Below, piece by piece: positions 2,765-39,734 of a stretch of DNA of 64,000 bases (the stretch's first letter is position 1; every line of letters begins with the position of its first letter). The position numbers were made by a program, and so were the translations under genes. Location of the stretch: NCBI GenBank assembly GCA_964291265.2, contig OZ219747.1:448001-512000 (forward strand), read 5' to 3'. The notes beneath the pieces are model-generated. The model was given only the letters and a program-made list of their open reading frames with translations. It was not told the origin of the DNA and ran no database searches. Source of the stretch: Alphaproteobacteria bacterium. Lineage in GTDB: Bacteria; Pseudomonadota; Alphaproteobacteria; SP197.

Positions 2765-2967
2765 GGGGCGATGACACCATCTTGGACTTCGCTGCGGGGG
2801 ACACCATCGCGTTGAGGAACATTGATGGGGTCAACGCGTTCGGCGACATGACCGTTGATTCCACGGAAGGCGGTTTCACGATCTCCTTCGGTGACGGCAG
2901 CGCCGACACCCTGACCGTCACGTCCAGCCTGAAGGCACTCGAAGCCGAACACTTCGACTTCCTGTGA
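2765..2967 (+). pseudogene. C-terminal remnant of an RTX/hemolysin-type Ca-binding secreted protein
   Basis: GDDTILDFAAGDTIAL...LEAEHFDFL resembles a type I secretion C-terminus. No intact upstream frame. Confidence 0.5.
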
Positions 2968-2977
2968 TGCGTTTCGC

Positions 2978-3004
2978 GCGCAGGGCCGCCACCGCGGCCC
3001 TGCG
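2978..3004 (+). terminator. GC-rich hairpin after the RTX remnant; its 3' arm is the IS target
   Basis: cgcagggccgc-cacc-gcggccctgcg inverted repeat. Confidence 0.55.
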
Positions 3005-3005
3005 T

Positions 3006-4672
3006 GGGTGTGAGTCTAGTATGGCAGTTCTGTTATGGTCTTAAGTTATGGACTTAGTTCCATTGTTTCATCTCATGCGGCCAGCGCCGGGGTGTGATGT
3101 GGGCTGATGTTGTCGTTGGCTGGTGCGTTGTCGCCCTCGATCATGGCGGTCCACGCGCTTTCGAAGCGGCCTGATTTGAGCAGGGCGCGGAAGGTGAGAA
3201 CGGCTTGTCCGCCGACGATGCGCCAGCGCATGCCGGAGCGCTTCATGCGCTGTGTGACGAGGGTCTTGTTGGCTGCCTCGACAAGTCCCGAGCCGATGGC
3301 GATCCCCTGTTGCTTCAGCGCGTGGTAGCGCATGCGGTGGCGATGCTTGCGGAAGAAGGCCAGTTCCCTGTCGATGTCGGCTCGGCCCGCCGGCTTGGCG
3401 GTGTCGCGAAGGTGGCGCAGCGCCCGGATCACCCTGTCGATGCCGCGGGGGTCGTGACGCAGGATCTCGCGGTACTTCTCGAACCAGTGGGGCGCCGCTG
3501 CATGGTCGGCCACCACGCGCAGATGCTCGCAGGCATGCCAGAAGTCGATCACCTCGGTTTCGGGTTCAAGACCAGAGAGGAAGGTCCAGTTGTCGGCGGC
3601 GGCGTCGGCGATGGCGCTGATCCTGATCTCGGGACGCTCGCGCCTGATATGCGCGACCTCGCTTGCCAGCTGCACCTTCAGCGTGCACTTGCCGCGCTCG
3701 GGCATGCGGCCGAGATAGACGGTCTTCAGGCGCTCACCGTCGGCATCGTGGAAGGAGACTGTGCCACAGGCCGCCTCGCGCCAGCAGGCCTCGCTACGGC
3801 CGTCCTCGCCGGCCCGCAGCGCCACCATGACGCCGTCGAGCGAGACCGAGGCGGTGACCGCGTCCTGCGGGATGTCCTCGGCTTCCCGGATGCCATCCAG
3901 GGCCTGCGGACCGAGACGTTCCCAACGCTCCTGCATGGTCAGGCTCAAGCGCTGCAAGGTGCTCACAGACGGCGTCATGGCGCCGAGCTTGCCGAAGAAC
4001 GCCTCCGCTTCCCGCGCCGTGCAGTGGACCATCATCATCAGCCCAAGCTGAGCCGCCGGCCGTGTCAGGTCGTCGTCGACGAGGCCCAGGCTTTCGTCCA
4101 CCGGCATCAGCGACCGGCAGTGCCCGCCGGTGCGATAGCGCGCACGCCGAAAGGTCACCGGGCCGAGCGAGGTCATGATCGTCTTCGGCGTCGGCGCCAC
4201 ACGGAACCAGTTCTGCCCGTCCCGTTCGATCCGGGGCGCACCGTCGTCCCGGGCCTCGGCACAGGCACCCAGGATCTCGCAACCAAGCGCGTGCACGCTC
4301 TCAAGCACCCGCCGCTCCGCTTCCTCGAAGGCCTCGGCAGAGCGCTCTGAACCAAGCTGTCGATGACACACCGCGGTCACTTGCGTGACCGCTTCGACAA
4401 CCCGAGGCGGCAAGCCGAGAAGATCGATGGACGCGGAAGGCCGAAGCTGTGACACTGACATGGGAGCGCTCCTGATGTTGTGGTTTCAAGCCAGCATCAT
4501 ATCGCATCTTGCGGTGCGGAGCGTTCCCGCATCCACCGCCAAGCCCTGCTGTCGTGACAAAATCCGGTCCTGAAACGGGCAATTGTCACGAAACCCCGTT
4601 TTCGCCGTTCCATCGCGAACGCACAACCGTGATAAATCAATGACTTGGCTTCGCCATACGAGAACTACACCC
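3006..4672 (-). mobile_element. ISKra4-like (Mutator-type) insertion sequence, copy 1, 1667 bp
   Basis: Imperfect TIRs GGGTGTGAGTCTAGTATGGC / GGGTGTAGTTCTCGTATGGC. 7-bp direct repeat cctgcgt at 2999-3005 and 4673-4679. Near-identical to 6532-8198. Confidence 0.88.
3073..4461 (-). CDS. ISKra4-like DDE transposase, 462 aa
   Basis: Motifs VSLDGVMV, IADAAADNW, IDFWHACEHL (Mutator D-x2-H motif) and GSGLVEAANK...RMKRSGMRW. Confidence 0.85.
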   Translation of the reverse strand: MSVSQLRPSASIDLLGLPPRVVEAVTQVTAVCHRQLGSERSAEAFEEAERRVLESVHALGCEILGACAEARDDGAPRIERDGQNWFRVAPTPKTIMTSLGPVTFRRARYRTGGHCRSLMPVDESLGLVDDDLTRPAAQLGLMMMVHCTAREAEAFFGKLGAMTPSVSTLQRLSLTMQERWERLGPQALDGIREAEDIPQDAVTASVSLDGVMVALRAGEDGRSEACWREAACGTVSFHDADGERLKTVYLGRMPERGKCTLKVQLASEVAHIRRERPEIRISAIADAAADNWTFLSGLEPETEVIDFWHACEHLRVVADHAAAPHWFEKYREILRHDPRGIDRVIRALRHLRDTAKPAGRADIDRELAFFRKHRHRMRYHALKQQGIAIGSGLVEAANKTLVTQRMKRSGMRWRIVGGQAVLTFRALLKSGRFESAWTAMIEGDNAPANDNISPHHTPALAA

Positions 4673-6531
4673 CCTGCGTTGCATCCGGACTGCGTGCGGC
4701 GGGAGGCGTCGACGATGCGGCGCTGGCGCTATGGTGAGCCCGTGAGCAGCGGAGGGCGGACCGTCTGTCGCTAGTCCGAAGTTCCAGAACCGATCAGACG
4801 TATCGTTATGAATGTATTGACGTTTGAAAAAATCGGGTGTGTCGCTACTGGGAACGCTGCAGGCGTATGCCGAGGTAGTCCAGGGCCTTTTTCTGGAGCG
4901 GCGTGGGCCGCGTGGTGACCTGGAAGGGTTGGGCGCCCGCAAGGCGGGGCGCCACGGTGTTGCGGGTGATGGTCGCGAGATCATCGAGGAGGGTGCGGAA
5001 ACTGTGCACCGGATCACCCCCGGGCGTCCTCTTCGTTGCCGCCTTGGCCCGGGCGCTCGCCGAGACTTCTGCCGGCGCCACGACGGACGGCCGCCGGGCC
5101 TCGGCGCCTTCGGCATCCTCGTCGTCGAACAGCATGGGCTTCAGTTTCTGGCGCATGTGCCATTCCACGTAGTAGGCGAGCATGCACAGGAAGACATGGG
5201 CGCGGACCCGGGGTTCGGTGCGGTGGTAGACGGGACGGACCTTCAGATCCACGGTCTTCAGGCTGCGGAAGGCCCGTTCCACCGAACTCAACCGCTTGTA
5301 GGCGCGCACCGTGCCGGGACCGTCGAGTGCGCTTTGCGGCAGGCTGGTGCGGATCACGCAGAGGCCGTCGAGCCTGGCCTCGGCGGCGATGGCAGCCTCA
5401 TCGCGCCCATAGGTGAAGACACCGTCGTCGTCGATGGACCACGTGAAGTGCTTCGCCATCTTGTACTTGCCGATGACCTTGCCGACCCGCTCCCCGATCT
5501 TGTCGGCACCCTTGAGACGGCGCTTGTCGCGCCGTGTCGCTGCTGCGATCGGTTCAAGCAGGGCCTCGGTGGCCTCGAGCAGTTCCTGGCGCTTGCGGGC
5601 CCGGTCCTCGGCCAGCAGGGGGTTGCGGCAGACCATGAGGCGTTCGCCGGGATACGCATCGCTGGTGATCTCCACCAGGTCCCTCTCGTCGAAGAGCGAC
5701 ATCTCGACGTCGCCGGCCTCCACAAGGGCGCGGATGGCCGGTCCCCTCAAGGCGCTGATCCAGTCCAGGCCCGCAGGCTTCACCTCCTCGCGTATGCGCG
5801 CCTCGGTCAGCATCCCCCGGTCTCCCACCAGCACCACCTTCGCCAGGGAGAAGCGCTCCTGCAGCGTGGTGATCTGTGATGCCACCGTCCCGGGGTCCGC
5901 CGTGTTGCCGGGGAACACTTCCACCGACACTGGACAGCCGTCCCGATCGCACAGAAGGCCGAACTCGATCTGCAGCTTGCCCTTCTTGCCATCCCGGGAA
6001 TGACCCCTCCTGGCCAGGGGACACGCTCTCCCCTCCATCCATACCGAGGTCAGGTCATAGAGCACCAGGCAGCCCTCTTCGAGGCGCCGCTTCGCCAGGG
6101 ACCGCTCGATCCTCTCCTGACGCTCCAGGAGCCAGTCCATGGCGCCATAGAGGGCGTCCTCGTCCATCTCCGCATCGAGGACCTCGCCCAGGGTGCTGAC
6201 CGCCGTGGCCTCGGCCAGCCCCCTGGCCGTGGCCAGCTTCGAGGCGGGCTCGAGGATGCGTGCCACGATCATGGCCAGGACCTGATCGCGCTCAGGCGAG
6301 GGCTTCGGGTCGATCAACCTGTCCAGTCCCAGCTTCTTCAGGGTTCCCAGCACTGCGGCGACATGCCCATGGGGTAGGGAGCGGACGATGTCGAAGGCGT
6401 CGTCACGACCGACGAGGGGTTCGTTCTTCAAGAACCGCCGCAGGGTCTCGACCTTTTCCATGGGCCAGGAGGAGAGATTGGCGATGGTGCGCTTCTTGAC
6501 CTTGCCGTTCTCGCGCCATCCCTCTCGCAGG

Positions 6532-8198
6532 GGGTGTGAGTCTAGTATGGCAGTTATGTTATGGTCTTAAGTTATGGACTTAGTTCCATTGTTTTATCTC
6601 ATGCGGCCAGCGCCTGGGTGTGATGTGGGCTGATGTTGTCGTTGGCTGGTGCGTTGTCGCCCTCGATCATGGCGGTCCACGCGCTTTCGAAGCGGCCTGA
6701 TTTGAGCAGGGCGCGGAAGGTGAGAACGGCTTGTCCGCCGACGATGCGCCAGCGCATGCCGGAGCGCTTCATGCGCTGTGTGACGAGGGTCTTGTTGGCT
6801 GCCTCGACAAGTCCCGAGCCGATGGCGATCCCCTGTTGCTTCAGTGCGTGGTAGCGCATGCGGTGGCGATGCTTGCGGAAGAAGGCCAGTTCCCTGTCGA
6901 TGTCGGCTCGGCCCGCCGGCTTGGCGGTGTCGCGAAGGTGGCGCAGCGCCCGGATCACCCTGTCGATGCCGCGGGGGTCGTGACGCAGGATCTCGCGGTA
7001 CTTCTCGAACCAGTGGGGCGCCGCTGCATGGTCGGCCACCACGCGCAGATGCTCGCAGGCATGCCAGAAGTCGATCACCTCGGTTTCGGGTTCAAGACCA
7101 GAGAGGAAGGTCCAGTTGTCGGCGGCGGCGTCGGCGATGGCGCTGATCCTGATCTCGGGACGCTTGCGCCTGATATGCGCGACCTCGCTTGCCAGCTGCG
7201 CCTTCAGCGTGCACTTGCCGCGCTCGGGCATACGGCCGAGATAGACGGTCTTCAGGCGCTCACCGTCGGCATCGTGGAAGGAGACTGTGCCACAGGCCGC
7301 CTCGCGCCAGCAGGCCTCGCTACGGCCGTCCTCGCCGGCCCGCAGCGCCACCATGACGCCGTCGAGCGAGACCGAGGCGGTGACCGCGTCCTGCGGAATG
7401 TCCTCGGCTTCCCGGATGCCATCCAGGGCCTGCGGGCCGAGACGTTCCCAACGCTCCTGCATGGTCAGGCTCAAGCGCTGCAAGGTGCTCACAGACGGCG
7501 TCATGGCGCCGAGCTTGCCGAAGAACGCCTCCGCTTCCCGCGCCGTGCAGTGGACCATCATCATCAGCCCAAGCTGAGCCGCCGGCCGTGTCAGGTAGTC
7601 GTCGACGAGGCCCAGGCTTTCGTCCACCGGCATCAGCGACCGGCAGTGCCCGCCGGTGCGATAGCGCGCACGCCGAAAGGTCACCGGGCCGAGCGAGGTC
7701 ATGATCGTCTTCGGCGTCGGCGCCACACGGAACCAGTTCTGCCCGTCCCGTTCGATCCGCGGCGCACCGTCGTCCCGGGCCTCGGCACAGGCACCCAGGA
7801 TCTCGCAGCCAAGCGCGTGCACGCTCTCAAGCACCCGCCGCTCCGCTTCCTCGAAGGCCTCGGCAGAGCACTCTGAACCGAGCTGTCGATGACACACCGC
7901 GGTCACTTGCGTGACCGCCTCGACAACCCGAGGCGGCAAGCCGGAAAGATCGATGGACGCGGAAGGCCGAAGCTGTGACACTGACATGGGAGCGCTCCTG
8001 ATGTTGTGGTTTCAAGCTAGCATCATATCGCATCTTGCGGTGCGGAGCGTTCCCGCATCCACCGCCAAGCCCTGCTGTCGTGACAAAATCCGGTCCTGAA
8101 ACGGGCAATTGTCACGAAACCCCGTTTTCGCCGTTCCATCGCGAACGCACAACCGTGATAAATCAATGACTTGGCTTCGCCATACGAGAACTACACCC
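6532..8198 (-). mobile_element. ISKra4-like insertion sequence, copy 2, 1667 bp
   Basis: Same TIRs as copy 1. 8-bp target duplication ctcgcagg at 6524-6531 and 8199-8206. The empty site is visible in the intact IS1634 at about 39928. Confidence 0.92.
6599..7987 (-). CDS. ISKra4-like DDE transposase, 462 aa
   Basis: Differs from 3073-4461 by only a few residues. Confidence 0.85.
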   Translation of the reverse strand: MSVSQLRPSASIDLSGLPPRVVEAVTQVTAVCHRQLGSECSAEAFEEAERRVLESVHALGCEILGACAEARDDGAPRIERDGQNWFRVAPTPKTIMTSLGPVTFRRARYRTGGHCRSLMPVDESLGLVDDYLTRPAAQLGLMMMVHCTAREAEAFFGKLGAMTPSVSTLQRLSLTMQERWERLGPQALDGIREAEDIPQDAVTASVSLDGVMVALRAGEDGRSEACWREAACGTVSFHDADGERLKTVYLGRMPERGKCTLKAQLASEVAHIRRKRPEIRISAIADAAADNWTFLSGLEPETEVIDFWHACEHLRVVADHAAAPHWFEKYREILRHDPRGIDRVIRALRHLRDTAKPAGRADIDRELAFFRKHRHRMRYHALKQQGIAIGSGLVEAANKTLVTQRMKRSGMRWRIVGGQAVLTFRALLKSGRFESAWTAMIEGDNAPANDNISPHHTQALAA

Positions 8199-8406
8199 CT
8201 CGCAGGAGGACGGCGGGGGGTGAGTTACGGTTGGGGACGATGTCTACGTACATGGCAACGTATATGGGGGCGTAAGCCCACCGTGTCAAGGGAAAACTTC
8301 GCCGTTACATGGGAACATTCTCGCGCCATCATCGCGCTGTTTTGCCAACACAATCAACCGGTTATCGTGACTCTGCCGCTGAAATCGTCCGGAACTTCGG
8401 GCTAGT

Positions 8407-8793
8407 CCGAAGTTCCAGCACCGTTCAGACGTATCATCATGAATGTATTGACGTTTGATGGAATCGCGTGTGGCGCTACTGGGAACGCTAGAGGCGCACG
8501 CCGAGGTGGTTCAGGGCCCTTTTTATGGAGCGGCGTGGGCCGCGTGGTGACCTGGAAGGGCCGCAGGGTTTCGACGTTCTCCATGGGCCAGGAGGAGAGA
8601 CTGGTGGCGGGGGGCTCATGCGGTTGGGGACGATGTCCACGTACATGGCAACGTACATGGGGGCAAAAGCCTCCTGTGTCAACAGGGTGTTTCACCGTTA
8701 CATGGGAACTTCTGCATGTTGTCTCTGTACGCTTTTATCAGTAAGATCAACTAGTTGATGTGGTTATAGCGCTGAAATCGTCCGGAACTTCGG
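8407..8793 (-). mobile_element. MITE (internally deleted IS1634 relative), 387 bp
   Basis: Both IS1634 TIRs present. Fuses N-terminal WPMENVETLR to C-terminal PFQVTTRPT. Flanked by gctagt at 8401-8406 and 8794-8799. Confidence 0.9.
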
Positions 8794-9009
8794 GCTAGTG
8801 CTCGGGGGCCGGGATGGGGAGTCCGCTTGATGACGGCCGGGACACCGTCACCAAACAGTCATGAACGTCGGCCTGCCTGCTCACCCCGCGCCATGAAGCA
8901 TGAGCCCGTCGTGGCCGTTGGACGAGTGCGTTGTTCCAGCGTGTTGGTACACGATAATGCGATGGTCCTGGAGGGGCCCGTCTCCATGAGGACAGGATCA
9001 GCGCAAACA

Positions 9010-9195
9010 GGTCAAGGTCGCACGTTTCCTTACCCGGGTTCCATGCTGTCCTGCGCCCGTGTCCGGACTTTCCTTGCGAAGGCAGAGTGCCGCCGCCTGG
9101 AGGGATGCAGACAGGGCGGCGGTCGCCTCCACGGCGTGCGGTATCCGCGCAAGCCGCACGCGCCCGGCCTTCGCGACGACGTCCGCCGCTTCACT
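9010..9195 (+). pseudogene. Decayed homolog of the Zn-finger/HTH gene at 17196-17810
   Basis: TFPYPGSMLSCARV...ECRRLEGCRQGGGRLHGVRYPRKPHA...DDVRRF aligns by eye with SFPGPILSCAHV...ERCRLEGCPHCGGRLHSARYPRKPHA...GDNRRF. Confidence 0.8.
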
Positions 9196-10030: not shown

Positions 10031-10612
10031 CGCACGATCCGCACTAGACGACGGCACGGCTGCTGCCGATCCTCGGAGACGGACGCATGCCAACCGAAAA
10101 CATCATGACGGCGAGAATCCCCTCCGGACTCGGCGCACCCAAGGACATGATCGTGATCGGTGTCGAGTTCGCTGAACGACCAGATATCATCCTCTACGTC
10201 CCTTCTGTCGAGTTGGCTGACGGCCTCGCTGCGTGCATGTCCGGCCGCACGGCGGCGGGACCAGCCCTTGATACTCCATCGTCGGTCCCAAGTGTTGTCA
10301 GACCGCGCCGAAGCCTGCAACCGACAACGCACCATGCACGGCACGGACGACGGCATGCTTGCGAGCCGGTTCCCCATGACGTCGGCTTCCGGTTCTCGAA
10401 AGCCGCAGCAATCATGGCTCAGCCCTTCATCGATCTCACGCTCCCGGAGGCGGCAGGGCTCTTCTTTTGTCCGGTTTCGTCCGATGAGGGGGCGTTGCAG
10501 GCAGATCTGGAGGTCCATTCGGGACCGGATTTCGTTGTCGATATGCCGGTTTCGACCTCGAGAAAGTGCCACCAACTTCAGACGTCCTGACCTCGGCTAT
10601 GAATTTGTCCAA

Positions 10613-12795
10613 TCAGTTTGATGCTTCTGGGCCGAGTTTGGGTGGGTTGTCTGGCATGTCGTAGATCATGCGCAGGTCGGTTCCTGGGAAGGTCGTGCGC
10701 GTCTGGTTGAGTTCGTCGAGCAGTCCGGCGATATCGGCGTCGCGTGCGTTGCTGGCGGTGCCGAGGAATCGCACCCGCAGGACGCGGTTTTCCTGATCGG
10801 GGATGATGTCGGCGTCCGACTGGAACAGTTCGGCGAGGGGGCGTCGCGGACGCTGTTTTGCGCCCTGGGCCTGGGCGACGGCGGCCATCATCCGGGTTTC
10901 GGCGCGGTAGGCGATCATGCGAACGATGTCGAGCAGCAGCCTCTCGCTGGAGGGCAGGGCGTCGAGCCTGTCGTTCTCGTCGAGCTCGGCCACGGTGACA
11001 TGTTTCGGGATTTCTGCACGCCGGACCTTGAGCGCCTCGTGCTCGGCGTCGAGCGTCACGATCTTGTCCTGCAGCGTCGCGGCGGCCGTGATGGCGGTGT
11101 CGGACGGGGCGCCCTTGAGCAGGTCGGCGACGCGGTTGCGCAGTGTGCCGAGCTTCTGGCGCACCTGGCGGATGCGGCGGTCGCAGCGGCGCCAGTGCGG
11201 ATGGACGACGCGCGCTTCGGGGTCCTGCTCGACAAGGCCGTGCACGGCCAGCGCGTCGAGGCCGAACTCCTGGCGCATGTACTTGAAGAAGTTCTCCTGG
11301 GACCAGCGCGAGAACAGCGCGCCGGCGACCCGCTCCATGGGCGTGTGCATGTCCGTGGTGACAAGCGGCACCTGCCGGCCGCTGTCCAGAAGACGCCGGA
11401 TCTGGCGCACCTGCGGTCCGCCGGACAGCGTGATCCGTCTCTGTGCGAGCCGCACCTCGGCGGTGCGGACGCCACCTGGTGAGTGGAGCGGCGCCCGGAC
11501 CGTGCGGAACTCTCCCTGTGGCCAGGGATCGCTCCGGAACCCCTTGTGCCAGGTGATCACCGCCACCCCGCGTCGGGCGAGGCGGGCGAACAGCGCCGGG
11601 CTCCAGCCCTCGCGGTCGAACACCAGCGTCAGCCCCGGCGCAACCGCCTCTCCCCTGGCGAGGTCCGGCGCCTCCGGCCCCGGCAGGCCGAGCCGCTCCA
11701 GCGCGGGCAGGATGTCGTGCTCCAGCGCGTGCGTCATGGTCGGGTCGAGGTCCTTGTGCAGGCACAGGAGCGGCCGGCCGCCGAGCGCGTTGACCCAATA
11801 GCCTGTCGAGGCCGGCAGACAGAGCTTCTGACGTGACACGAAGTGCTTCGGCAGGCGACCCTTGCGGCCCGAATATACCTTCACGTGCCCGTCCACCGAC
11901 AGTGTCGCGCAGACATCCGGCGCGCCCGCGATCCAGTCCTTCGCCAGCGCGTCCTGCCAGTCCCGGACCCGCTGCGGGTCGCTCGCGAGCGCCCTGATCT
12001 TGCGCCGCAGCGTCTTGACCTCCGGGCAGCGGTCGAGCCCCAGGACCGCGCCCCGTTCTCCGGGCGCCTCGTGGCGCAGCGCCTCGGGGTTGCGGATCCG
12101 GGCCATGAACAGGAAGGCGAGCATGAGAAGCACGCTCGTCAGCCCATAGTACCCTTTCGGCAGCGACAGGAACCTGTCCGCGTGCTCCAGGAGACCCTCC
12201 TTCAGCAGCGCCGGCAGCGCCGCCAGGACGCCGCCGCCGGCGACCGCCGAGAGTGGCTCGTCGAAGCGCGGCGGCGCTTCGTTCATGGCTCCCGTCGAAG
12301 CCGCGACGCGCCCGGCGCTGTCGCGCGCGCCGCGCCCCATCGGCGCGACCCTGTCGCGACGGTCCCGTTCGCCGCGGCCGAGAAGATCGTCCGGGCATCG
12401 CGTGGCCTCGTCGACTTGCGCCGCCTGCGGCCGCTCTCCGCCGCCGATGAAGCCGTTGCTGAGGTTGTAGTACGCCGTCGATCTCGCGATCCCCAGTTCC
12501 CGGGCCAGTGCCGCGGCGTTCATGCCCTCGGCCAGGAGACGGTTCGCCGCGGCTGCCGTCTCGCCTGTGATCACGCTGAGACCACGGCCCTTGCGTGGCT
12601 CGTAGAAGCTCGCTTCGCCCTCGTCCCGGAGCTTCCTCACCGCCCGCTGCACGGTCGCGCGGCTCACGTCGAAGGCCGCCTGCAGGTCTCCTTGAGGAAC
12701 GCCGTGCCTGGCGAACCTCGCGATCCGCAGCAGCATGGCCGGCCGGTCGCCCTCGTCGTGGCAGTCGAAGGGCTCCATGTTCGAGAAGTAGACGG
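10613..12795 (-). pseudogene. Large putative DDE transposase, main part; reconstructs to 754 aa with 17961-18042
   Basis: Two HTH-like segments, motifs SVDGHVKVY, LVFDREGWS and FSRWSQENFFKYM, and a coiled coil. The frame joins the N-terminal piece across the inner element (DGQTV|YFSNMEPF). Confidence 0.8.
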
Positions 12796-12886
12796 TGAGC
12801 GCCTTCAGGCAGATTGATGATGCGTTGATCGGGCAATTTAGTGGACATGAGCTTTCGCGCTGCGCTTGGTTTGCGGTTCTTGAAGG

Positions 12887-13750
12887 CTACTTGGAAGGGA
12901 AGGCTGGTGTTCGTGCCTTGAGGACGTCGTTCCAGTCTTTGTGTCCGTCTGGGGGTCTCATGCGGAGAGCTCTTGGGTCTTGGCTGACGAGGCGCTCGGC
13001 GGCCTGTTCTCCGACGGGATCGGCGTCGAAGGCGACGAGGATGCGCTTTGGCGTCCAGGCTTCGGCCCATGTTGGGAGACGGTAAGCGATGCCGGCGGTT
13101 GACAGGATCACGGTAGCGGATTGCCGACATTCCTTGAGGCACCATGCGGAGAGGGCGTCGATGGCGCTTTCGGTGATGATGATGGTGCGTGGCATGGAGC
13201 GGTCCACGGGGATCCAGAAGCTGCCGGCGGCCTTGCGTGATCCACGCGCCATGGCTCTGTACTGCTTTCCGTCTGCGTTGGGGACGGTACCGACGATCTC
13301 GGCGCCGGAGACGTCTCTTCGTGCGTTGGTGCATGTGAAGACGGCGTTTCTGCGTTCGTCGGCGGCGACGAGGCCGTGCTGTCGGCAAGCGTCCAGGCAA
13401 CGGTCTGGCAGGCGGCGGTCATGGGCGAGGTAGTGGCGTACGGCGTGCCAGGTTTCCTCGCAGTGCGTTGGTGTTCTCGGCCCCTTGCCGCCGGAGCGTG
13501 CGGTGAGGAGTGCGACGGCGTCGTTGAAGCTGCAGCGGTGTGCATGCATGACGAGATCGATGGCGCCGCCACCGCCGGACTGGGTGATGTGGTCGAACCA
13601 GCGTTGTCGGTTGACGCTGATGACGGATCCGTGGCGCTTGAAGCGTCGCGGGTCGCGCGGGTCTCTTCGGTAGCCGAGCCGCAGGGCGAGTGGTTCGAGG
13701 GGCTGGTTGCGGATGTCATCGAGATGCTGATTGTCCCAGGACCGGATCAT
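12887..13750 (-). CDS. DUF3991/Toprim-domain primase-like protein, 287 aa
   Basis: WFDH..GGGGAIDLVMH..CSFNDAV (DnaG N-terminal-like), YL..R.L, IITESAIDALS, VAFDADPVG and KDWNDVL. RBS ggagg upstream. Confidence 0.8.
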   Translation of the reverse strand: MIRSWDNQHLDDIRNQPLEPLALRLGYRRDPRDPRRFKRHGSVISVNRQRWFDHITQSGGGGAIDLVMHAHRCSFNDAVALLTARSGGKGPRTPTHCEETWHAVRHYLAHDRRLPDRCLDACRQHGLVAADERRNAVFTCTNARRDVSGAEIVGTVPNADGKQYRAMARGSRKAAGSFWIPVDRSMPRTIIITESAIDALSAWCLKECRQSATVILSTAGIAYRLPTWAEAWTPKRILVAFDADPVGEQAAERLVSQDPRALRMRPPDGHKDWNDVLKARTPAFPSK

Positions 13751-13785
13751 GGTCTGTCGAGCCTCCTGCGTGGTGGACGGGGGGT

Positions 13786-13850
13786 GGTTCCCGTTGGCGG
13801 TTCCCACCTGAACTCCCAGGGTGAACGGGAACCGGGAACCGGGAACCGCC
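13786..13850. repeat. Cluster of five GGGAACC heptamers (two inverted, three tandem); candidate origin
   Basis: ggttccc at 13786 and 13799; gggaacc at 13827, 13834 and 13841. Perfect 10-bp IR at 13796-13805/13841-13850. Confidence 0.65.
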
Positions 13851-13884
13851 TGGCGTCGGGGCGTTTTGCGCCTGGTTGTTGCGG

Positions 13885-14832
13885 TCAGGCTTTGGCGACG
13901 CGATAGGCACCGGGACCGTCCTGTGCGACACGTCCTTCCTGGACGAGCTTGGCCAGAAGCGTGGCGACGGTCGTGTTCCGTGTTGGGACGCGGTCCCGGA
14001 CCTGGCGCAGCGAGAGCGGGGCATCGGCGTCGGCGAGGACCTGGACGATGCGCTGTTCGGGGGTTGGCGGCTGCGGCCTGGCGCCGTCGGGTTCCTGTTG
14101 CCGCAGCTGCAGGGCGGCTCCGTTGCCGCTGTCGGTGAGTTCGATGTCGAGATCGGCGAGTCCGGGTGCGGCGCGGTGTTCGACGGTCATGAGGATGGTT
14201 TCGTGGCGGCGCCGCAGGTAGAGGTTGCTGTCGCCCCATGCGTGCAGCTCGCTGCTTCCGCGCAAGGCCTGTCCGGGCCGGCTGGCGGCGCTCTTGCGTG
14301 CGTGGTGGACGAGCAGCACGGCGGCGCCGGAGTGTCGCTGCACGTCGCGCAGGAAGCCGAGGATCGGCGCGATCTCGGCGACGGCGTTTTCGTCGACGCC
14401 GTGCAGGCGGACGAGGGGGTCGAGGATGAGCAGGCGGGAGCCGTGACGCTCGACGGTCTCGAGCAGGCTCTGGCGGTCGGTTGGGTGGTCGAGGCGCAGT
14501 GCGGGGACGTCGATGACGGCGATGTCGAGGGTGTCGAAGTCGGCGCCGGCTGCGGCGGCGATGCCCTGGAGGCGGCGTCGCACGATGTGGCCGGCGTCCT
14601 CGGCGGCGAACATGAGCACCGGTCCGGGGTGCATGGCCGGGAAGCGGCGCAGACAGGGGACGCCGGCGGCGACGGCGACGGCGAGATCGAGGGCGAGGAA
14701 GGACTTTCCGCACTTGGGTTCGCCGCCGATGATGCCGACGGCCTCGCGGCCCCACAGGCTGTCGACGAGCCACTGCCCCTCGGTTGGCCGGTCCTCGAGT
14801 TCGGCCGGGCTGCGGGTTGGCAGGCCGATCAT
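13885..14832 (-). CDS. RecA-superfamily AAA_25 (RepA-like) helicase/ATPase with a C-terminal winged-HTH-like region, 315 aa
   Basis: Walker A GGEPKCGKS, FAAED, Walker B LLILDPL, LLVHHARK and LRGSSELHAW. ATGA overlap with the upstream gene. Confidence 0.85.
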   Translation of the reverse strand: MIGLPTRSPAELEDRPTEGQWLVDSLWGREAVGIIGGEPKCGKSFLALDLAVAVAAGVPCLRRFPAMHPGPVLMFAAEDAGHIVRRRLQGIAAAAGADFDTLDIAVIDVPALRLDHPTDRQSLLETVERHGSRLLILDPLVRLHGVDENAVAEIAPILGFLRDVQRHSGAAVLLVHHARKSAASRPGQALRGSSELHAWGDSNLYLRRRHETILMTVEHRAAPGLADLDIELTDSGNGAALQLRQQEPDGARPQPPTPEQRIVQVLADADAPLSLRQVRDRVPTRNTTVATLLAKLVQEGRVAQDGPGAYRVAKA

Positions 14833-15659
14833 CGTGTGCGCCTCGGCGGGATGGGTTCGCCCCAGGTTTCGAGGAAGAGCTTTTCGTCGAGCACCTCGCG
14901 GTCGGTGTCGAGGGCGACAGCGAGGAGGTTGTCGGCGAGGATGGTCAGGGAGCGCGGATTGCCGTCTGCATGGACGACGAGGGTCTCCTTGAGGCCGGGG
15001 GTCATGAGGCCTGGATTGCCGGCGGCGTCGAGCAGGTGGTCGAGCAGGCGGAGCAGTTCGTCGGGTTCGCAGCGCGTCATGACGAGGCGTTGACGGACCC
15101 GCGAGGCGACGGCTTGCAGGTCGGGGCTGTGCAGCTTGGCGAGCAGGCGGCTGTCGCCGGCCAGGACGACGCTGAGGATGGCGCGCGAGTCGAACTCCGT
15201 GGAGGCGAGCAGGCGCAGTTCGGTGAGCACGGCCTGCGGCATCTCCTGGGCCTCGTCGACGAGCAGGACCGGGCGCATGCGGGTGTCCTCGAGATGGGTG
15301 AGCCAGCACTCGCGCAGGGCCTTGAAGCCGGCCCAGAGGTTCCGGCGCAGTGTCGTGATGCCGAAGAGGTCGGTCATCTCGCGGTAGAAGTCTGCGGTGC
15401 TCGACGAGGGATGGGCGAGCACGGCGACGTCGAGGCCCTCCGCGGTCTCGAGACGCTCGTCGAGCAGGCGCAGGGCGACGCTCTTGCCGGTGCCATGCTC
15501 GCCGGCCACCACGGCGAAGCCGCCCTGGCGCACGAGCTGACGCTCGATCCTGCGGCAGAAGCTGTCGATCGCGGGCGTTGCGAGAAGGCCCTCGACCGGC
15601 AGGTCGGCGGCGAAGGGGTTCCACTTGAGGCCGTAATGGGTGAGGTGTTGGCGGTTCAT
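14829..15659 (-). CDS. ExeA/GspA-like AAA+ ATPase (transposition helper), 276 aa
   Basis: YGLKWNPF, Walker A GEHGTGKS, Walker B LLVDEAQ and GNPR sensor. ATGA-coupled to the transposase. Confidence 0.88.
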   Translation of the reverse strand: MNRQHLTHYGLKWNPFAADLPVEGLLATPAIDSFCRRIERQLVRQGGFAVVAGEHGTGKSVALRLLDERLETAEGLDVAVLAHPSSSTADFYREMTDLFGITTLRRNLWAGFKALRECWLTHLEDTRMRPVLLVDEAQEMPQAVLTELRLLASTEFDSRAILSVVLAGDSRLLAKLHSPDLQAVASRVRQRLVMTRCEPDELLRLLDHLLDAAGNPGLMTPGLKETLVVHADGNPRSLTILADNLLAVALDTDREVLDEKLFLETWGEPIPPRRTR

Positions 15660-17173
15660 GACATGTCTCCCTGATCGTTGTTGTCCTTGCCTTCGTCGTT
15701 CGGGCCGGCATCCTTGCCGAAGGGCAACCATGCCGGGGGCAGGCCGGTGGCGTCCTGCTCGTCGCGCAGGCGCTTGAGCAGCGGCGCCGGCCCGGTCTGT
15801 GGCTTCACCTCGTCGTCTTCTCTCCGGCGCCCGGTCCGGCGGCGGAGCCCCTCGGCGTTGCGAGACTTGTCCACCGGACGCAGGGTCGAGATGCGGTCCC
15901 CGGTGCGGCCGTCGACCATGTCGATGCCGGAGAGGTCCCAGCGGGCGACGCGCAGGTCGATCTCGCGCAGGTGGCGCCACGGCGCCGGCAGTTGATAGCG
16001 GACACTCGCCACCGTCACCGTGGCGTCGGAGCGTCGCACCTTGCGACGCACCTTGATGCGGAAGGCGGCCCGGAGTTCGCTGCTGTCCGGGCATGTCCGC
16101 GAGGCGTCCTCGCTGTCGATCACGCGCCTGAGCGGCGTGACCCCCGTCTCGCGGTGTACGCGGCGGTGATACTCGCGCTCGAACCAGATGACGGTGGCGT
16201 CGTTCAGGTCCTGCAGGGTCAGGGTCTCGACGTTCTCGAGCATCGCCATCAGGCGGCCCTCGACCTGGGCGAACAGCACCTCCTGCTTGCCGTTCTGGTA
16301 CGGGCTGCGGACAAGCGTGTGGTGGTGCAGCACGCCGAGGGCGTGCAGTCCCTCCTGCACCTCCCCGGCCGTCATCGCCGATCCGTTGTCGGTCAGAAGG
16401 GACCGCGGCAGCCCTCGCTTCATGAAGGCCTGGCTGATGCCGTGAACGAAGATCTCCGTGGTCTCCCCGAGATACCACTGCATGTGGCAGACGAGACGCG
16501 AGTGGTCGTCGATGAAGCTGAGCAGGATCGGCGTCCTCCACTCCCCGGACGGCGTCAGCACGCGACAGGTCCGCGCATGGTGGAAGTCGGCGTGCCACAG
16601 GGCATGGCTGCGCGAGACCTCGTAGCTCAGCACCTCGCGCCCCTCGACCGCAGGCCGCTCCGCTTCACCACCGAACTTCCGCTGCCGCCGCCGCCGCTCC
16701 AGGCCCGCCGAACGCATGACCCGGGTCAGCGTCGCATAGGACGGCATCGGCCCGAGCGAAGGGTCGGCCTCGACCAGCGCGCAAAGGTTGTCGTGGTGGA
16801 GCTGAACCGACCACGTGGGGTGCGCCCTGTACTGGTCGCGCAAGGCCGCCATCAGCAGGGGCGAGACGCTCCGCGCACGACCGGCGTCGCAGCGCACCCG
16901 ACGGCGCAGCGCCCGCACCGGATCCCGGTCGGCCGACCGCGCCTTGTAGTACCAGCGCTCGATCGTCGACACCGAGAAGCGGATCGTGCCGCCCCTGACG
17001 GGATGCTCCCAGTCCCGCCGCGACAGCCGTTGAAGCTCGGCCCGCAAACCACCCTTCGGCGGCGGCGACGCCAGCAGCGGGCCAACCACCGCAAAGCGCA
17101 GCCGCGTCCAGGCGTCCCCGGCGTCCGCTTCGTCCTTCGTCACCACGACGGCCTTCCTCCCTCGTCGTCCCAT
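15656..17173 (-). CDS. DDE integrase-type (rve/Mu-like) transposase, 505 aa
   Basis: N-terminal HTH, WHADFHH, FIDDHSR, LTDNGS and NGKQE catalytic motifs, Mu-like C-terminus. Confidence 0.9.
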   Translation of the reverse strand: MGRRGRKAVVVTKDEADAGDAWTRLRFAVVGPLLASPPPKGGLRAELQRLSRRDWEHPVRGGTIRFSVSTIERWYYKARSADRDPVRALRRRVRCDAGRARSVSPLLMAALRDQYRAHPTWSVQLHHDNLCALVEADPSLGPMPSYATLTRVMRSAGLERRRRQRKFGGEAERPAVEGREVLSYEVSRSHALWHADFHHARTCRVLTPSGEWRTPILLSFIDDHSRLVCHMQWYLGETTEIFVHGISQAFMKRGLPRSLLTDNGSAMTAGEVQEGLHALGVLHHHTLVRSPYQNGKQEVLFAQVEGRLMAMLENVETLTLQDLNDATVIWFEREYHRRVHRETGVTPLRRVIDSEDASRTCPDSSELRAAFRIKVRRKVRRSDATVTVASVRYQLPAPWRHLREIDLRVARWDLSGIDMVDGRTGDRISTLRPVDKSRNAEGLRRRTGRRREDDEVKPQTGPAPLLKRLRDEQDATGLPPAWLPFGKDAGPNDEGKDNNDQGDMS

Positions 17174-17195
17174 GGGAGGAAGGCCCTATACGGTC

Positions 17196-17810
17196 CTATG
17201 TCATCGCACTACAGGCACTCTCTGCGGGCGGCGACAGACCATCGACGATCCTGCAGAAGCCGGTCCACGGCATGAGCCAGACCAGGCTCCGCAGAAGGCG
17301 CGATCGAAACGATCCGCCGCGCATCAAGCGCACCAGGGCCACAAGCGGAGGCTCGTCCGCCTCCACCGCCAGATCGCCACGTTTCCAGCGCCACGCCGCC
17401 GTCGCCGGGAACCTCTCCCGCCACCATCGACGCCACCGGCCAAGCGTCCTCTCCGGGATGCCAGACATGCGGCTCGCCTTCGCCAGGGGAACACTGCCGC
17501 ACAGAACCAGGAGGCTCGCAGCCAGGTATACCGGCGCCGCACGGAACCTCCGGCCGAAGAAGCGCACCGAGGGCGGAGTCGTCCGGCTCCTGCACTCAGC
17601 ACAGCAGAAGCTGAAACGGCGGTTGTCGCCGCGAAGAGCAGGCGCAAGCGCGTGCGGCTTGCGCGGATACCGCGCGCTGTGAAGACGACCGCCGCAATGC
17701 GGGCATCCCTCCAGGCGGCAGCGCTCCGCCTCGGCCGCATCAATCCTCTCAAGGAGAGGCCAGACATGAGCGCAGGAAAGTATGGGACCCGGGAAGGAAA
17801 CGTGCGACAT
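17196..17810 (-). CDS. Zn-finger plus HTH protein (DUF6431-like position), 204 aa
   Basis: CPHC...CCAEC and an HTH-like LAKASRMSGIPERTLGRWRRWW. RBS ggagg. Confidence 0.7.
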   Translation of the reverse strand: MSHVSFPGPILSCAHVWPLLERIDAAEAERCRLEGCPHCGGRLHSARYPRKPHALAPALRGDNRRFSFCCAECRSRTTPPSVRFFGRRFRAAPVYLAASLLVLCGSVPLAKASRMSGIPERTLGRWRRWWRERFPATAAWRWKRGDLAVEADEPPLVALVRLMRGGSFRSRLLRSLVWLMPWTGFCRIVDGLSPPAESACSAMT

Positions 17811-17960
17811 TGACTGGCCTCCGGTGATCTCACCGTCACGGAGACAAGCCCCTCGGCCGACTTCTTGCAAGTCGGTCGAGGGGCAATCACCCCAGACCAG
17901 CAGACAATTCAAGCAAAACCGACGGAATCCACGTCAAAAATCGCGCAAACGCTTAGACGG

Positions 17961-18042
17961 TCTGTCCGTCGAGGTCGGCAAGGGAGAAGCACGAGGTTCC
18001 AATCTGGACGGCTTCGGGAGGGTGCATTGCGAGCGTGTTCAT
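17961..18042 (-). pseudogene. N-terminal 27 codons of the interrupted large transposase
   Basis: MNTLAMHPPEAVQIGTSCFSLADLDGQ(TV), in frame with 10613-12795 once the inner element is removed. Confidence 0.78.
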
Positions 18043-18272
18043 GGCCTGGACTGCTCCAATATAGGCATCATGTCATATTGGATCACCCCACGGCTATGGT
18101 GTCAAGCAAAAAACTGGGAAACCCGTTCATTGTGTTGGAAAAAAAGAAGGTCCGGACGGATCAAGTCAACTCACGAGGTCAGGACGTCTGAACTTCAAGA
18201 ACGGTCACTCTGAAGCGGTTGTCCACCGCCGATCACGACAACAGAACGGTCCTGCCGGAGGCGGTGACGCCC

Positions 18273-20680: not shown

Positions 20681-20692
20681 AGGATGCTTGCC

Positions 20693-21751
20693 ATGCCCAC
20701 TCGCAGAAACTTCTTGAGCTCTGTTGCCGCTGTTCCCCTTCTGTCGCTCGCCTCTCCGGTCGCCGCGCAGTCCAGCAATCCGATCAAGGTGGTCGCCACC
20801 TTCTCGATCCTCGGCGACATGACAAGGCGAATCGGAGGCGAGCATGTCGATGTCACGACCCTCGTCGGTCCTGACGGGGATACGCATGTTTACCGGCCAA
20901 CACCCGCAGATGCCCGGGCCGTCAGCGAAGCGGAAATCGTTGTCGTCAACGGACTGGAGTTCGAAGGTTGGCTGGACCGTCTGATCGACGCTTCGGAATT
21001 CAGCGGTGTCCGGGTGGCGGCGACCGACGGCATCGAGCCGATCGCCTACGAGCGCGACGACCACGATGATCATGACGATCACGATGATCACGACGACCAT
21101 GACGATCACGACGACCATGACGACCATGACGATCACGAAGACCACGATGATCACGACGACCATGATGATCACGACGATCACGACGACCATGACGACCACG
21201 ATGATCATGACCATCACCATGGCGCCTTCGACCCCCACGCCTGGCAGAGCCTCCGCAATGCCATCGTGTACGTGAACAACATTGCTGCGGCGCTGTCCGA
21301 GGCCGACGCGGACAATGCCGGCACGTTCTACCGGAATCGCGAGGCTTATGTGGACGAACTCGAGGCCCTCGATTCGGAATTCCGCGACACCTTTGCCCAG
21401 CTTCCCGAGGGCAGCCGAACCGTCGTCACCTCACACGACGCGTTCCAGTACTTCGGTCGCGACTACGGGCTGATCTTCCTGTCGCCGCAAGGGCTCAGCA
21501 CCGAATCGGAGGCATCCGCACAGGAAGTCGCTCGGCTCGTCAAGCAGATACGCGATCAGGACATTCAGGCCGTCTTCGTCGAGAACATCGCGGACCACCG
21601 CCTCCTGGAACGCATTGCCGACGAGACAGGAGCCGCCATCGGCGGCACGCTCTATCCAGGCGCGTTGTCCGACTCCGACGGTCCGGCACCGACCTATCTC
21701 GACATGATGCGGCACAACGCGACAACGATCATGCAGGCGCTGACCCCATAG
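20693..21751 (+). CDS. Zinc ABC transporter substrate-binding protein (AztC/ZnuA-like) with a long Asp/His loop
   Basis: Tat-like TRRNFL signal, VVATFSIL, DTHVY, DPHAW and SHDAF. Confidence 0.92.
   Translation: MPTRRNFLSSVAAVPLLSLASPVAAQSSNPIKVVATFSILGDMTRRIGGEHVDVTTLVGPDGDTHVYRPTPADARAVSEAEIVVVNGLEFEGWLDRLIDASEFSGVRVAATDGIEPIAYERDDHDDHDDHDDHDDHDDHDDHDDHDDHEDHDDHDDHDDHDDHDDHDDHDDHDHHHGAFDPHAWQSLRNAIVYVNNIAAALSEADADNAGTFYRNREAYVDELEALDSEFRDTFAQLPEGSRTVVTSHDAFQYFGRDYGLIFLSPQGLSTESEASAQEVARLVKQIRDQDIQAVFVENIADHRLLERIADETGAAIGGTLYPGALSDSDGPAPTYLDMMRHNATTIMQALTP
21056..21220 (+). repeat. Coding 9-bp repeat, (D/E)DH x17 followed by DHHH
   Basis: GAY-GAY-CAY units with shuffled synonymous positions. 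Confidence 0.95.
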
Positions 21752-36727: not shown

Positions 36728-36943
36728 CGCCGGGACAGGCGTATTCCGCACGACGCTGCGGCGCCGGGACCTCTCACCGGCTTAGCACCGGAACACGGTT
36801 GCGCGAGATCGGTTCGTTCGACGACATCGGCCACGCCGGGGCCTTGAGGTTTCGCACGGGGACTGTTCAGGAGGGCGGTCATAAAGGGGTTCGACGATCT
36901 TGCCCGCTGCATTGCGTTGCCGGAGTCGTCCTGCTCGTTCTCC

Positions 36944-38719
36944 GTCGGGTAGGCCACTGGCGCGCGCATCCGTAGGCAGAGGCTTTGTCCGTCACCGCTC
37001 TTTCGATTGCGGGCGGGGTCGCAGTTCTCCCATAGACCACGTTTCCAGCAGTCGGGTAGGCCGCTGGCGCGCGCATCCGTAGGCAGAGGCTTTGTCCGGC
37101 ACCGCTCTTTCGATTGCGGGCGGGGTCGCAGAACTACCATAGACCACGTTTCCAGCAGCCTCCCTAAAATTCCGTACGTCCGGTTTTCCCGGGTACGGCT
37201 TCAAGCATCAGGCACCCACTTGGAGTTCGGTGCGGAGCCTTCCGCCGAACACGCCATGGTCAAGGCTGACCCGACCATACCCACGGCATCTCCGAGCGTT
37301 TGCTCCGTCCTTCGACCTTGCAGTCTGTCGGTCGGTGCCGGTCTCTGAGTACCGACTTGACCTGCCGCATAAGCCACCTGAGCCCTGAGGTCCTCGCTCA
37401 GGACGGGTTGTGTTGTCCCGCCCGTCAACGCTTACTCGACCTCATCCGCCAGTCAGGAGGACTCCGCGTCCTTTCCCAGTCCTGGTTATAGACGCGGTCC
37501 TTGACATTCAAGGGTCACTTCATCCTGTCTGTCCTCCTCACCTTCCGGCCTTTCACTGCTGTACTGTCCCGGATTGCCGTCGTCTCTACCACGGGGAACC
37601 CGATGCGTGCTCCCCAGTTCTTCCGCATCGACTCTGGCCACCAAGCTGGGGGCAGGCCCTTGGCGTTCCCAACACCCCACAAGTCAGCTTCATGTGGGAA
37701 ATTTCATTTTCGAGGCTTCGTACAATCGTTCGCTTTCGCTACGGCCCTCCGGTTCGCTCGCCGCCCTGGCTGACCAGACCAACTGGACACTGCGTTCCAG
37801 CCAGCCCACAGCGGCTTCTACATCCCAGCTCGCTGGCCCAGGGTCACCCCTGTACCAGTGGGATATGCTACGGCGCCAAACTGGGAATTGCGCCGGCGGG
37901 ACTTTCACCCGCAAGTACAGCAGCTAGACTCGCTGCACGCCCCCCTAAAATTCCGTACGTCCGGTTTTCCCGGGTACGGCTTCAAGCATCAGGCACCCAC
38001 TTGGAGTTCGGTGCGGAGCCTTCCGCCGGACACGCCATGGTCAAAGCTGACCCATCCATACCCACGGCATCTCCTTGCGTTTGCTCCGTCCTTCGACCTT
38101 GCAGTCTGTCGGTCGGTGCCGGTCTCTGAGTACCGACTTGACCTGCCGCATAGGCCACCTGAGCCCTGAGGTCCTCGCTCGGGACGGGTTGTGTTGTCCC
38201 GCCCGTCAACGCTTACTCGACCTCATCCGCCAGTCAGGAGGACTCCGCGTCCTTTCCCAATCCTGGTTATAGACGCGGTCCTTGACATTCAAGGGTCACT
38301 TCATCCTGTCTGTCCTCCTCACCTTCCGGCCTTTCACTGCTGTACTGTCCCGGATTGCCGCCGTCTGTACCCTGGGGAACCCGATGCGTGCTCATCAGTT
38401 CTTCCGCATCGACTCTGGCCATCGGGCCGGATCCACGCCCTTGGCATTCCCGACCACCCCACAAATCAGCTTCGTGTGGGAGCATCATTTCGTGGCTTCA
38501 TCCAATCGTTCGCTTTCGCTACGGCCCTCCGGTTTGCTCGCCGCCCTGGCTGACCGAACCGGTTGGGCACTGTGTCCCAGCCAGCCCACAACGGCTTTCT
38601 ACGTCCCAGCTCGCTGGTCCAAGGTCGCCCCTGAACCAGTGGGATATGCTACGGCGCCAAACTGACAATTGCGCCGGCGGGACTTTCACCCGCAAGTACA
38701 GCAGCTAGACTCGCTGCAC
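36944..38719 (-). ncRNA. ORF-less group II intron, outer member of a twintron (888 nt net)
   Basis: 5' GUGCAGCGAG at 38719, DV GAAGCCGUACCCGGGAAAACCGGACGUACGGAAUU at about 37949-37983, DVI at 36944-37050 with bulged A and ...ACCCGAC end. EBS1/EBS2 are complementary to its 5' exon. Confidence 0.9.
37051..37938 (-). ncRNA. ORF-less group II intron, inner member (888 nt), inserted in DVI of the outer intron
   Basis: Complete from GUGCAGCGAG (37938) through DV (about 37168-37202) to ACCCGAC (37051). EBS1 GCCCCC matches the flanking GGGGGC. No RT ORF. Confidence 0.92.
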
Positions 38720-39084
38720 GGATCCCGATGCTTGGCTGTCCGAGGAATTCGCCGCTCTCATCTTCGAAGGCTCGTGGCGCATGGGGTGTGACGGTAGAAC
38801 TCCGAACGGAGTCGGGATCGGGCGAAGTCGCCCTGCACACCCCATCGCCTGATACGTCGGCGTCACAAGGGAATGGAGCCGTCGCGGCGATTGATCGAGA
38901 CCACCGGTCCGCGATCTTCGAGCGCGTTCCGCGTTGTCGGCCGATCACAGAGGTAACAGAACGCGTCGTGGAGTGCAGAATCTTGGACTGTGGCCATCCT
39001 CGTTCTTCCGCAACCGGAACGTTGCGGCGTGGACATCCGTCATACAATCGGTCTACATTGTGGCCCAATCAGGAGGATCGACCC

Positions 39085-39342: not shown

Positions 39343-39343
39343 A

Positions 39344-39728: not shown

Positions 39729-39734
39729 ATTAGA

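Follow-up and report, generated by a model that had tools for sequence, protein, structure and literature searches.

A transposon of the Tn6049 group with an exchangeable helicase–array–primase cassette behind its transposition genes

In copy-out transposition, replication is assumed to be carried out by the host. Whether a small transposon may bring the enzymes for this step along is the question raised by a 5,160-bp element in the genome of an alphaproteobacterium (GTDB lineage SP197; contig OZ219747.1 of assembly GCA_964291265.2). The window analyzed is a stretch of 64,000 nucleotides of this contig (positions 448,001 to 512,000), in which the element occupies positions 12796–17955. Behind a transposition core of three genes it encodes a predicted helicase and a predicted primase, with an origin-like repeat array between their genes. 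We tentatively favor the reading, to which we give slightly less than an even chance, that these form an exchangeable cassette supplying the DNA-synthesis step of the element's own copy-out/paste-in transposition. A preliminary description had presented the element as a candidate self-replicating or self-priming transposon. The replication-type enzymes, the purifying selection on their genes, their association with transposons and the origin-like array speak for that view, whereas two of its parts, the helicase as core machinery and the unnamed class, were not supported.

Boundaries, copies and genes of the element

At six sites of contig C2, both ends of the element recurred without a shift of a single base. 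A blast search of the region against its own genome yielded five further full-length copies and a 743-bp end fragment. The six copies are 99.4–99.8% identical, and each is flanked by its own matched 5-bp duplication (gcacc, gacgg in the window, acagg, acgtc, ccgcg and gatgg); the six target sites have no clear common sequence. Four copies are uninterrupted at 5,160 bp, with 15–30 bases different from the window copy and all five frames open, and two are split by a 5.3-kb IS21. In the window, the element interrupts the transposase gene of another insertion sequence (IS), which reads through once the element is removed; eight other copies of this host IS without insertion were detected by blast, and each of the five whose sequences were compared contains a single GACGG. 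The exact boundaries, the transposase frame restored upon removal and the imperfect terminal repeats TGAGCG/TAAGCG with a duplicated gacgg, all proposed in the preliminary description, were thus borne out, the repeats at all six copies and the duplication with a different sequence at each site. The left end is TAAGCG in all six copies, with TA where the family has TG. An assembly artefact was rejected in view of the distinct flanks of the six copies and the presence of relatives in other genomes; the element is a recently active transposon.

The features of the element and its insertion site are as follows (window coordinates, strand):

12791–12795, plus: left copy of the 5-bp target duplication GACGG
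12796–12830, plus: distal (right) end, TGAGCG, with the motif TGATG at positions 20–24 as in relatives and Tn6049
12887–13750, minus: orf5, 287 aa, predicted DnaG/T7-fold primase (zinc-binding-domain-like fold, DUF3991, Toprim)
13787–13846, minus: origin-like array, GTTCCC three times, a spacer of ~23 bp, GGGAAC twice
13885–14832, minus: orf4, 315 aa, predicted RSF1010-RepA-like helicase of superfamily 4 (SF4; AAA_25) with a C-terminal winged helix
14829–15659, minus: orf3, 276 aa, ExeA/MuB-type AAA+ ATPase (AAA_22)
15656–17173, minus: orf2, 505 aa, DDE transposase (rve)
17196–17810, minus: orf1, 204 aa, Cys-rich zinc-ribbon and helix-turn-helix (HTH) protein (DUF6431-like)
17925–17955, minus: proximal (left) end, TAAGCG, with TGACG at positions 20–24
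17956–17960, plus: right copy of the 5-bp target duplication GACGG
10579–18190, minus: host IS (Transposase_29 family, duplication AACTT), interrupted by the element and not part of it

The five genes are co-oriented, and four of them gave Pfam matches above cut-off, to rve (orf2), AAA_22 (orf3), AAA_25 (orf4) and DUF3991 plus Toprim_2/3 (orf5); the ATGA overlaps of orf2/orf3 and orf3/orf4 are present. Translation of orf1 probably starts at the ATG at 17810, which follows a GGAGG, giving 204 aa, and not at the TTG of the 238-aa frame. A scan for sigma-70 promoters returned 0 sites.

The transposition core belongs to the Tn6049 group

The product of orf1 gave weak HTH matches in Pfam and a DUF6431/HTH look-alike at 0.96–0.97 in the ESM Atlas. 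In the orf2 product, D196, D262 and E298 likely form the DDE triad. Amino acid sequence identities to Tn6049 (pMOL28, pHS87a) were 46% over 137 aa for orf1, 49% for the transposase and 53% for the ATPase, annotated there as 'gspA'. The first three genes are the same and in the same order, and both elements have ends of the design TG(A/T)GC with TGATG at positions 20–24, duplications of 4–5 bp, short imperfect terminal repeats and multiple copies per genome. A quick tree placed orf2 on the same transposase branch as Tn6049. Hosts of the latter are Cupriavidus metallidurans CH34 and also Pseudomonas aeruginosa with plasmid pHS87a; the transposase matched 21 plasmid records, 18 of which are from Cupriavidus. 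Tn6049 has been described as a 3.5-kb element that encodes a 'gspA' ATPase and occurs 12 times in C. metallidurans (PMC2864759), and as having 12-bp imperfect repeats (PMC4739549); papers given by PMC or bioRxiv number are cited here and below for those parts of their text that were available. As judged by sequence, the three-gene core belongs to the Tn6049 group, a named but uncharacterised kind of transposon, and the preliminary description, which recognized no named class, is not supported in this point. Identity with Tn6049 itself was ruled out: it has a 90-aa fourth gene where the 5,160-bp element has helicase, array and primase. The helical gene product of 70–90 aa that closes Tn6049 and several relatives (L011, L042, L081–L083) had no named look-alike (best score 0.87).

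Membership in IS21 was rejected, as orf2 and orf3 gave no match to transpos_IS21 or IS21_help_AAA (IstB) at E ≤ 0.1, whereas a control IS21 from the same genome matched both models. The element shares with IS21 the pair of DDE transposase and AAA+ ATPase, the 5-bp duplications and, as proposed, a copy-out/paste-in mode of transposition (PMC11208146 for IS21), but its ATPase is of the ExeA/MuB type. IS481 was likewise rejected with 108.6 bits against an NCBIfam cut-off of 224 and five genes against the single gene of these ISs. None of the five genes had a Pfam match to TniQ, the Tn7-like selector, in a search at the sequence level, which a remote likeness of orf1 could escape.

Predicted functions of the helicase and primase

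The orf4 product matched RepA of RSF1010 (E = 2e-13), and its structural model (mean pLDDT 79) matched DnaB and RepA (TM scores with RepA 0.57/0.73). The C-terminal tail is winged-helix-like, with weak matches to Z-alpha domains in the PDB and to HTH_IclR. Walker A K43, E78, Walker B D138, H176/H177 and R191 are invariant in 33 homologues; RecA fold, Walker A, catalytic Glu, Walker B and the H and R motifs of the SF4/RepA type are all present. The protein is therefore predicted to be an RSF1010-RepA-like SF4 helicase with a winged-helix tail. The likeness to RSF1010 (IncQ) extends to sister elements that carry RepB' primases in the position behind the ATPase gene. It ends with the extra winged helix of orf4, the DnaG/T7 fold of the element's primase and the lack of a RepC initiator or relaxase.

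The model of the orf5 product (pLDDT 91.9) was superimposed on T7 primase (Z 13.7, rmsd 3.4, 176 residues aligned) and on Aquifex DnaG (Z 13.0, rmsd 3.5, 184 aligned). Residues 2–87 match the fold of the DnaG zinc domain (1d0q: Z 8.1, rmsd 3.0, 84 aligned), but the homologue alignment contains no conserved cysteines and the four metal ligands of such a domain were not found. Among 53 homologues, E194, D242, D244 and D272 are invariant and D198 is kept in at least 90%. With the Toprim core and its acidic metal ligands present, orf5 is predicted to encode a DnaG/T7-fold primase. Both proteins look functional, being replication-initiation-type enzymes with their motifs in place.

The dN/dS ratios against two five-gene relatives (L001, L003), determined by a simple counting method, were 0.26–0.36 for the helicase, 0.33–0.38 for the primase and 0.26–0.33 for the transposase. 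By this estimate helicase and primase are under purifying selection, like the transposase. The primase changes among four copies within the genome (7 replacement, 3 silent) are less reassuring, in a small sample.

In 72,556 plasmids the helicase had no match at E ≤ 1e-15. Its relatives in phages are phage primase/helicases with ≤35% identity, and no relative was confirmed among 16 candidate stretches of viral contigs. A plasmid or phage origin of this helicase clade was rejected within the collections searched. The helicase was found in 2 of 400 genomes of the phylum; for the primase, metagenome contigs yielded 2 weak loci only, and none was detected at E ≤ 1e-20 when 300 further genomes from the class were searched with a profile (up to 8 candidates scored per genome). 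In other genomes of the genus, 19 of the 20 helicase loci lie behind a transposase/ATPase gene of this type, and 12 of the 15 primase loci lie in such transposons; the remaining ones are three fragments or broken genes and one intact primase that has no transposase close by. Two primase homologues (L113:6490–7416 and L115:6822–7640, 40–42% identity) had none of the queried transposase types adjoining.

An origin-like array is tied to the helicase gene

The array at 13787–13846, which the preliminary description had not seen, begins ~40 bp after the helicase stop. The genome contains six arrays of the strict form, one in each element copy. In a unit-blind test, an array was found after 19 of 32 helicase genes (one of the 19 off-place), compared with 0 of 30 ATPase genes from elements that have no helicase and 13 of 3,000 random windows. 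A degenerate pattern detected it after 25 of the 32 helicase genes and in 0 of the 30 ATPase controls, 0 of 5,000 random windows and 1 of 6,400 shuffles. For both numbers, 32 and 30, each distinct element with sufficient sequence downstream was counted as a single locus; many of these are kin, so that the counts lack independence. The two arms have changed together in L108 and L109, to GTTACC/GGTAAC, and the array is kept with its arms changing in step across several phyla. At the level of sequence, the array is tied to the helicase gene.

Staphylococcus aureus pathogenicity islands (SaPIs) use an integrase and phage packaging, whereas the element has a DDE transposase. The likeness lies in the replication genes. 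SaPI helicases bind, via a C-terminal winged helix, oppositely oriented short repeats directly after their own gene (PMC9371898; bioRxiv 2026.10.17.759575), and Cch2 of the staphylococcal cassette chromosome SCCmec binds a site downstream of its own gene (PMC7581432). The element shares with the SaPI pri-rep-ori module and with SCCmec Cch2/CCPol-MP a winged-helix-tailed helicase, opposed short repeats directly after its gene and a primase alongside (PMC9371898; PMC7581432). By this analogy, orf4 may bind the array through its winged helix. The systems differ in that SaPI Reps are SF3/SF6 helicases, but orf4 is of the RecA-fold SF4 type; that the SaPI origin comprises ~300 bp with an AT-rich centre (bioRxiv 2026.10.17.759575), whereas the element's array is 60 bp, GC-rich and without such a centre; and that the primase gene lies downstream in the element.

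The cassette is optional and has been exchanged between transposons

The gene behind the ATPase was compared in the best 80 of 141 transposase matches from 185,579 genomes, a sample biased to close relatives. Clustering at 90% identity gave 49 element types, 6 of them without usable downstream sequence. In 32 of the 43 informative types the slot holds a replication-type gene: a helicase in 26, a DnaG-like primase in 2, a RepB' primase in 2 and a primase zinc-binding domain alone in 2. The helicase is followed by an orf5-type primase in 2 of the 26 types and by a zinc-binding domain in 1, several being cut by contig ends. Because RepB' has an unrelated primase fold, it is the function that recurs in the slot and not only the gene. 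In the transposase tree, a quick tree like all transposase trees used here, 13 rows with a helicase form one clade.

A distant branch with transposases only 26–28% identical comprises three forms of the cassette: primase only (15 full copies in genome G005), helicase and array only (G004 and G005; helicase 67–68% identical) and both genes (L109; helicase 72%, primase 48%). In the helicase tree, the three helicases of this branch nest inside the clade of orf4 (support 100), and a grouping of the 22 near-branch helicases was rejected by the approximately unbiased (AU) test (p = 0.0002; quick tree with long branches present), indicating that the cassette moved between cores that are only ~27% identical. 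A third branch (L160, L161) has a 44%-identical helicase and a DnaG-like primase but no array. In a six-copy relative (L004–L009), helicase and array are followed by two collinear fragments of the primase gene only, so that loss of the primase did not stop this element from moving. Judged from this distribution, the replication module is optional. The earlier view of the helicase as core machinery is not supported, as Tn6049 lacks both enzymes, 11 of the 43 types have no replication-type gene, and the helicase was swapped between cores; the ATGA overlap consequently shows coupled expression and not core membership. G004 and G005 each hold helicase-only and primase-bearing elements, and a supply of helicase or primase in trans is possible.

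The primase family also occurs behind IS21 genes. A true IS21 of this genome (222 bits against an NCBIfam cut-off of 160; 37 istB copies) carries a full-length orf5 homologue of 30% identity directly after istB, and IS21 relatives in G004, G009 and G016 also carry a primase after istB. The family sits last in three transposon lineages. IS21 is listed among the circle-forming families (bioRxiv 2023.06.07.543989; PMC11208146). In this 5.3-kb IS21 (L189, G000:C2:2284347–2289672, and about 36 more istB copies), istA and istB are preceded by a Cys-rich gene, and the Toprim/DUF3991 primase homologue is followed by repeated short segments; 29 of 36 pairs of IS21 ends had duplications of 5–7 bp.

Several single loci were recorded in addition. 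In G005, a primase-only element has its insertion point immediately downstream of the helicase stop codon in a helicase-only element (L156, G005:C13:509000–520000), which is a route by which cassettes could be reshuffled. In a decayed relative (G000:C1:266680–267510), the array and most of the primase gene are deleted behind the helicase, and a joint of the same span (12952–13880) was present in contigs of runs X2 and X3. Among the primase-only copies of G005 (L162–L176), 7 of 15 are without matched flanks, and L164/L168 and L174/L175 seem to have exchanged flanks. A helicase-less relative is inserted beside an apparent CRISPR array near position 9550 of L080, as seen from a repeated translation pattern.

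Proposed role of the cassette and alternative explanations

The mechanism that we favor would begin with the transposase joining the two ends in one strand only, which would yield a single-strand circle that remains base-paired with the donor. Through its winged helix, the helicase would then recognize the GTTCCC/GGGAAC array, load itself like a SaPI Rep on iterons and unwind the element. Primers would be made by the primase on the strand set free, and host polymerase would finish a double-stranded circle and also fill in the donor. In the last step, transposase and ATPase would integrate this circle, generating a 5-bp duplication. A relative without one or both genes might borrow the enzymes of the host or of a sister element. 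Copy-out needs displacement as well as second-strand synthesis, and a helicase or a primase alone could help, which would explain why elements exist with the helicase only, the primase only or both, and why IS21 has a primase.

Mu-type cointegrate transposition within one chromosome tends to leave swapped flanks. Flanks were matched at every copy of the element (6 of 6) and of two relatives (6 of 6 and 2 of 2), which argues against cointegrate-type replicative transposition and fits copy-out/paste-in or cut-and-paste. No circle junction (right end to left end) was seen among 14 joints in contigs of runs X1, X2, X3 and X5 over 12500–18250, and the end-spanning joints there represent empty host-IS sites; contigs of runs X1–X4 contained no left-end joints. 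Contigs drop rare forms, so neither result is evidence of absence. The depth of the element's contigs relative to long neighbors (~5–6x in X1, ~12–16x in X3) gives no copy number and was not used.

A number of observations weigh against the proposed role. Matched flanks fit cut-and-paste equally well, and in the primase-only relative of G005 only 8 of 15 copies have them; the unmatched ones may reflect recombination, assembly or another pathway. The host can prime copy-out from a free 3' end, so that the pathway has no need of an internal origin, and Tn6049 reaches its 12 copies without a cassette. The slot holds only a small unknown gene or nothing in the 11 remaining types, the zinc-domain-only genes (L013, L014) cannot prime, and the six-copy relative has only primase fragments. 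An intact primase homologue (L092/L113) has no such transposase nearby. Regarding the array, the degenerate pattern was drawn up post hoc, after the sequences had been seen; even by this looser pattern 7 of the 32 helicase elements have no array, including L160 and L161 with both helicase and primase; and the ~23-bp spacer is GC-rich and not AT-rich as in SaPI origins.

The same data were weighed for other explanations. The array may be a full origin from which the excised circle replicates for several rounds as a mini-plasmid or satellite with its own helicase and primase, for persistence, amplification before reinsertion or transfer. The layout of helicase, array and, in part, primase is that of autonomously replicating SaPIs (PMC9371898) and the SCCmec module (PMC7581432), TnGBS elements combine a DDE transposase with plasmid-like circle replication (PMC3942029), and an array with two arms in the interior of the element is better suited to loading on a circle than to a function at the termini. 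We nevertheless regard this as unlikely, if still a serious contender, because most helicase-bearing relatives have no primase, all examined primase-only ones have no array, no partition, capsid or relaxase gene is among the five (Pfam), and the plasmid collection returned no match to the helicase at the threshold used. A passenger status, in which the cassette was acquired from a phage or plasmid replicon and is of no help to the transposon, would agree with its gain, loss and swapping, with the phage primase/helicases as distant relatives and with the excess of replacement over silent primase changes in the genome. This is improbable in our view, given purifying selection between elements like that on the core, three kinds of primase plus a helicase filling one slot in which no other recognized cargo was found, the same primase family at the end of three transposon lineages, and an array conserved with matched changes on both arms in several phyla.

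Two further explanations have little in their favor. If the origin fired while the element is integrated, a local bubble with two copies would result, from which the transposase could cut one out and gain a copy by cut-and-paste. No circle would be needed, and matched duplications and an internal origin would fit; yet primase-only elements without an array would be unexplained, and unchecked firing would presumably amplify the flanks and harm the host, so we give this very little weight. Equally remote is a role of the last genes in target selection, by which they, at the place taken by TnsD/TnsE in Tn7, would direct insertion towards replication forks or single-stranded DNA. The position after the ATPase gene is that of the Tn7 selectors (PMC10293859), and some relatives have the zinc-binding domain only. 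Against this stand the conserved catalytic residues, the dissimilar target sites and the lack of a replichore orientation bias (5 of 7 copies, p = 0.45; IS21 13 of 35, p = 0.18); the array, too, would be left unexplained.

Relation to known systems and implications

Already known are the Tn6049-type core, DDE elements with a replicase of their own (TnGBS) and the action of the IS-excision enhancer (IEE) on circle-forming ISs. TnGBS1 and TnGBS2 are DDE-transposase elements whose circular form is replicated by an element-encoded replicase (PMC3942029); they are conjugative, with Mutator-type transposases and 8–9-bp duplications, whereas the element studied here has 5 kb and no transfer genes. 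IEE is a primase-helicase protein at the copy-out step of circle-forming ISs, but it is a fusion of an archaeo-eukaryotic primase (AEP) and a DEAD helicase, encoded by a separate gene, that acts on IS copies and promotes their loss (bioRxiv 2023.06.07.543989); the element's enzymes have different folds and are encoded inside it. No description of a small DDE/AAA+ transposon with helicase, array and primase was found in the literature searched, the scope of which did not include ISfinder, TnCentral, subscription journals and the Tn6049 supplements; the available parts of PMC10293859, PMC10122671 and PMC13192273 make no mention of such a transposon.

An element bringing a self-loading helicase, a binding array and a primase would make the assumption that the host replicates copy-out intermediates directly testable, with natural versions that have both genes, one or none as clean controls. 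If the proposed role is true, the cassette links insertion sequences with satellite and plasmid replicons, provides a role for DUF3991-Toprim primases, represents a very small (~2 kb) helicase-origin-primase module and may explain the spread of the group across at least 7 phyla. More far-reaching would be a class of self-replicating transposons, in which at least three DDE/AAA+ lineages (the Tn6049 group, the 27%-identical sister branch and IS21) repeatedly captured helicase, origin and primase modules, the five-gene form being a replicon whose circle starts DNA synthesis without recourse to host DnaA, DnaB and DnaG; we consider this doubtful rather than probable.

Other features of the window

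The genome is very rich in mobile elements. At window positions 10452–18255 there is a triple nesting, in which the element lies in the Transposase_29-family IS and the latter in a miniature element of ~190 bp (~20 blast matches). Further multi-copy ISs, some nested and with up to 46–47 blast matches, are located at 2765–8799, 36942–38733 and 39335–41694. Positions 8971–9193 contain a decayed remnant with an orf1 homologue (51% identity over 78 aa) of a related element. At 20684–21751, the substrate protein of a metal-binding ABC transporter with a long His/Asp repeat (DDH units) is encoded in a zinc-uptake-like operon.

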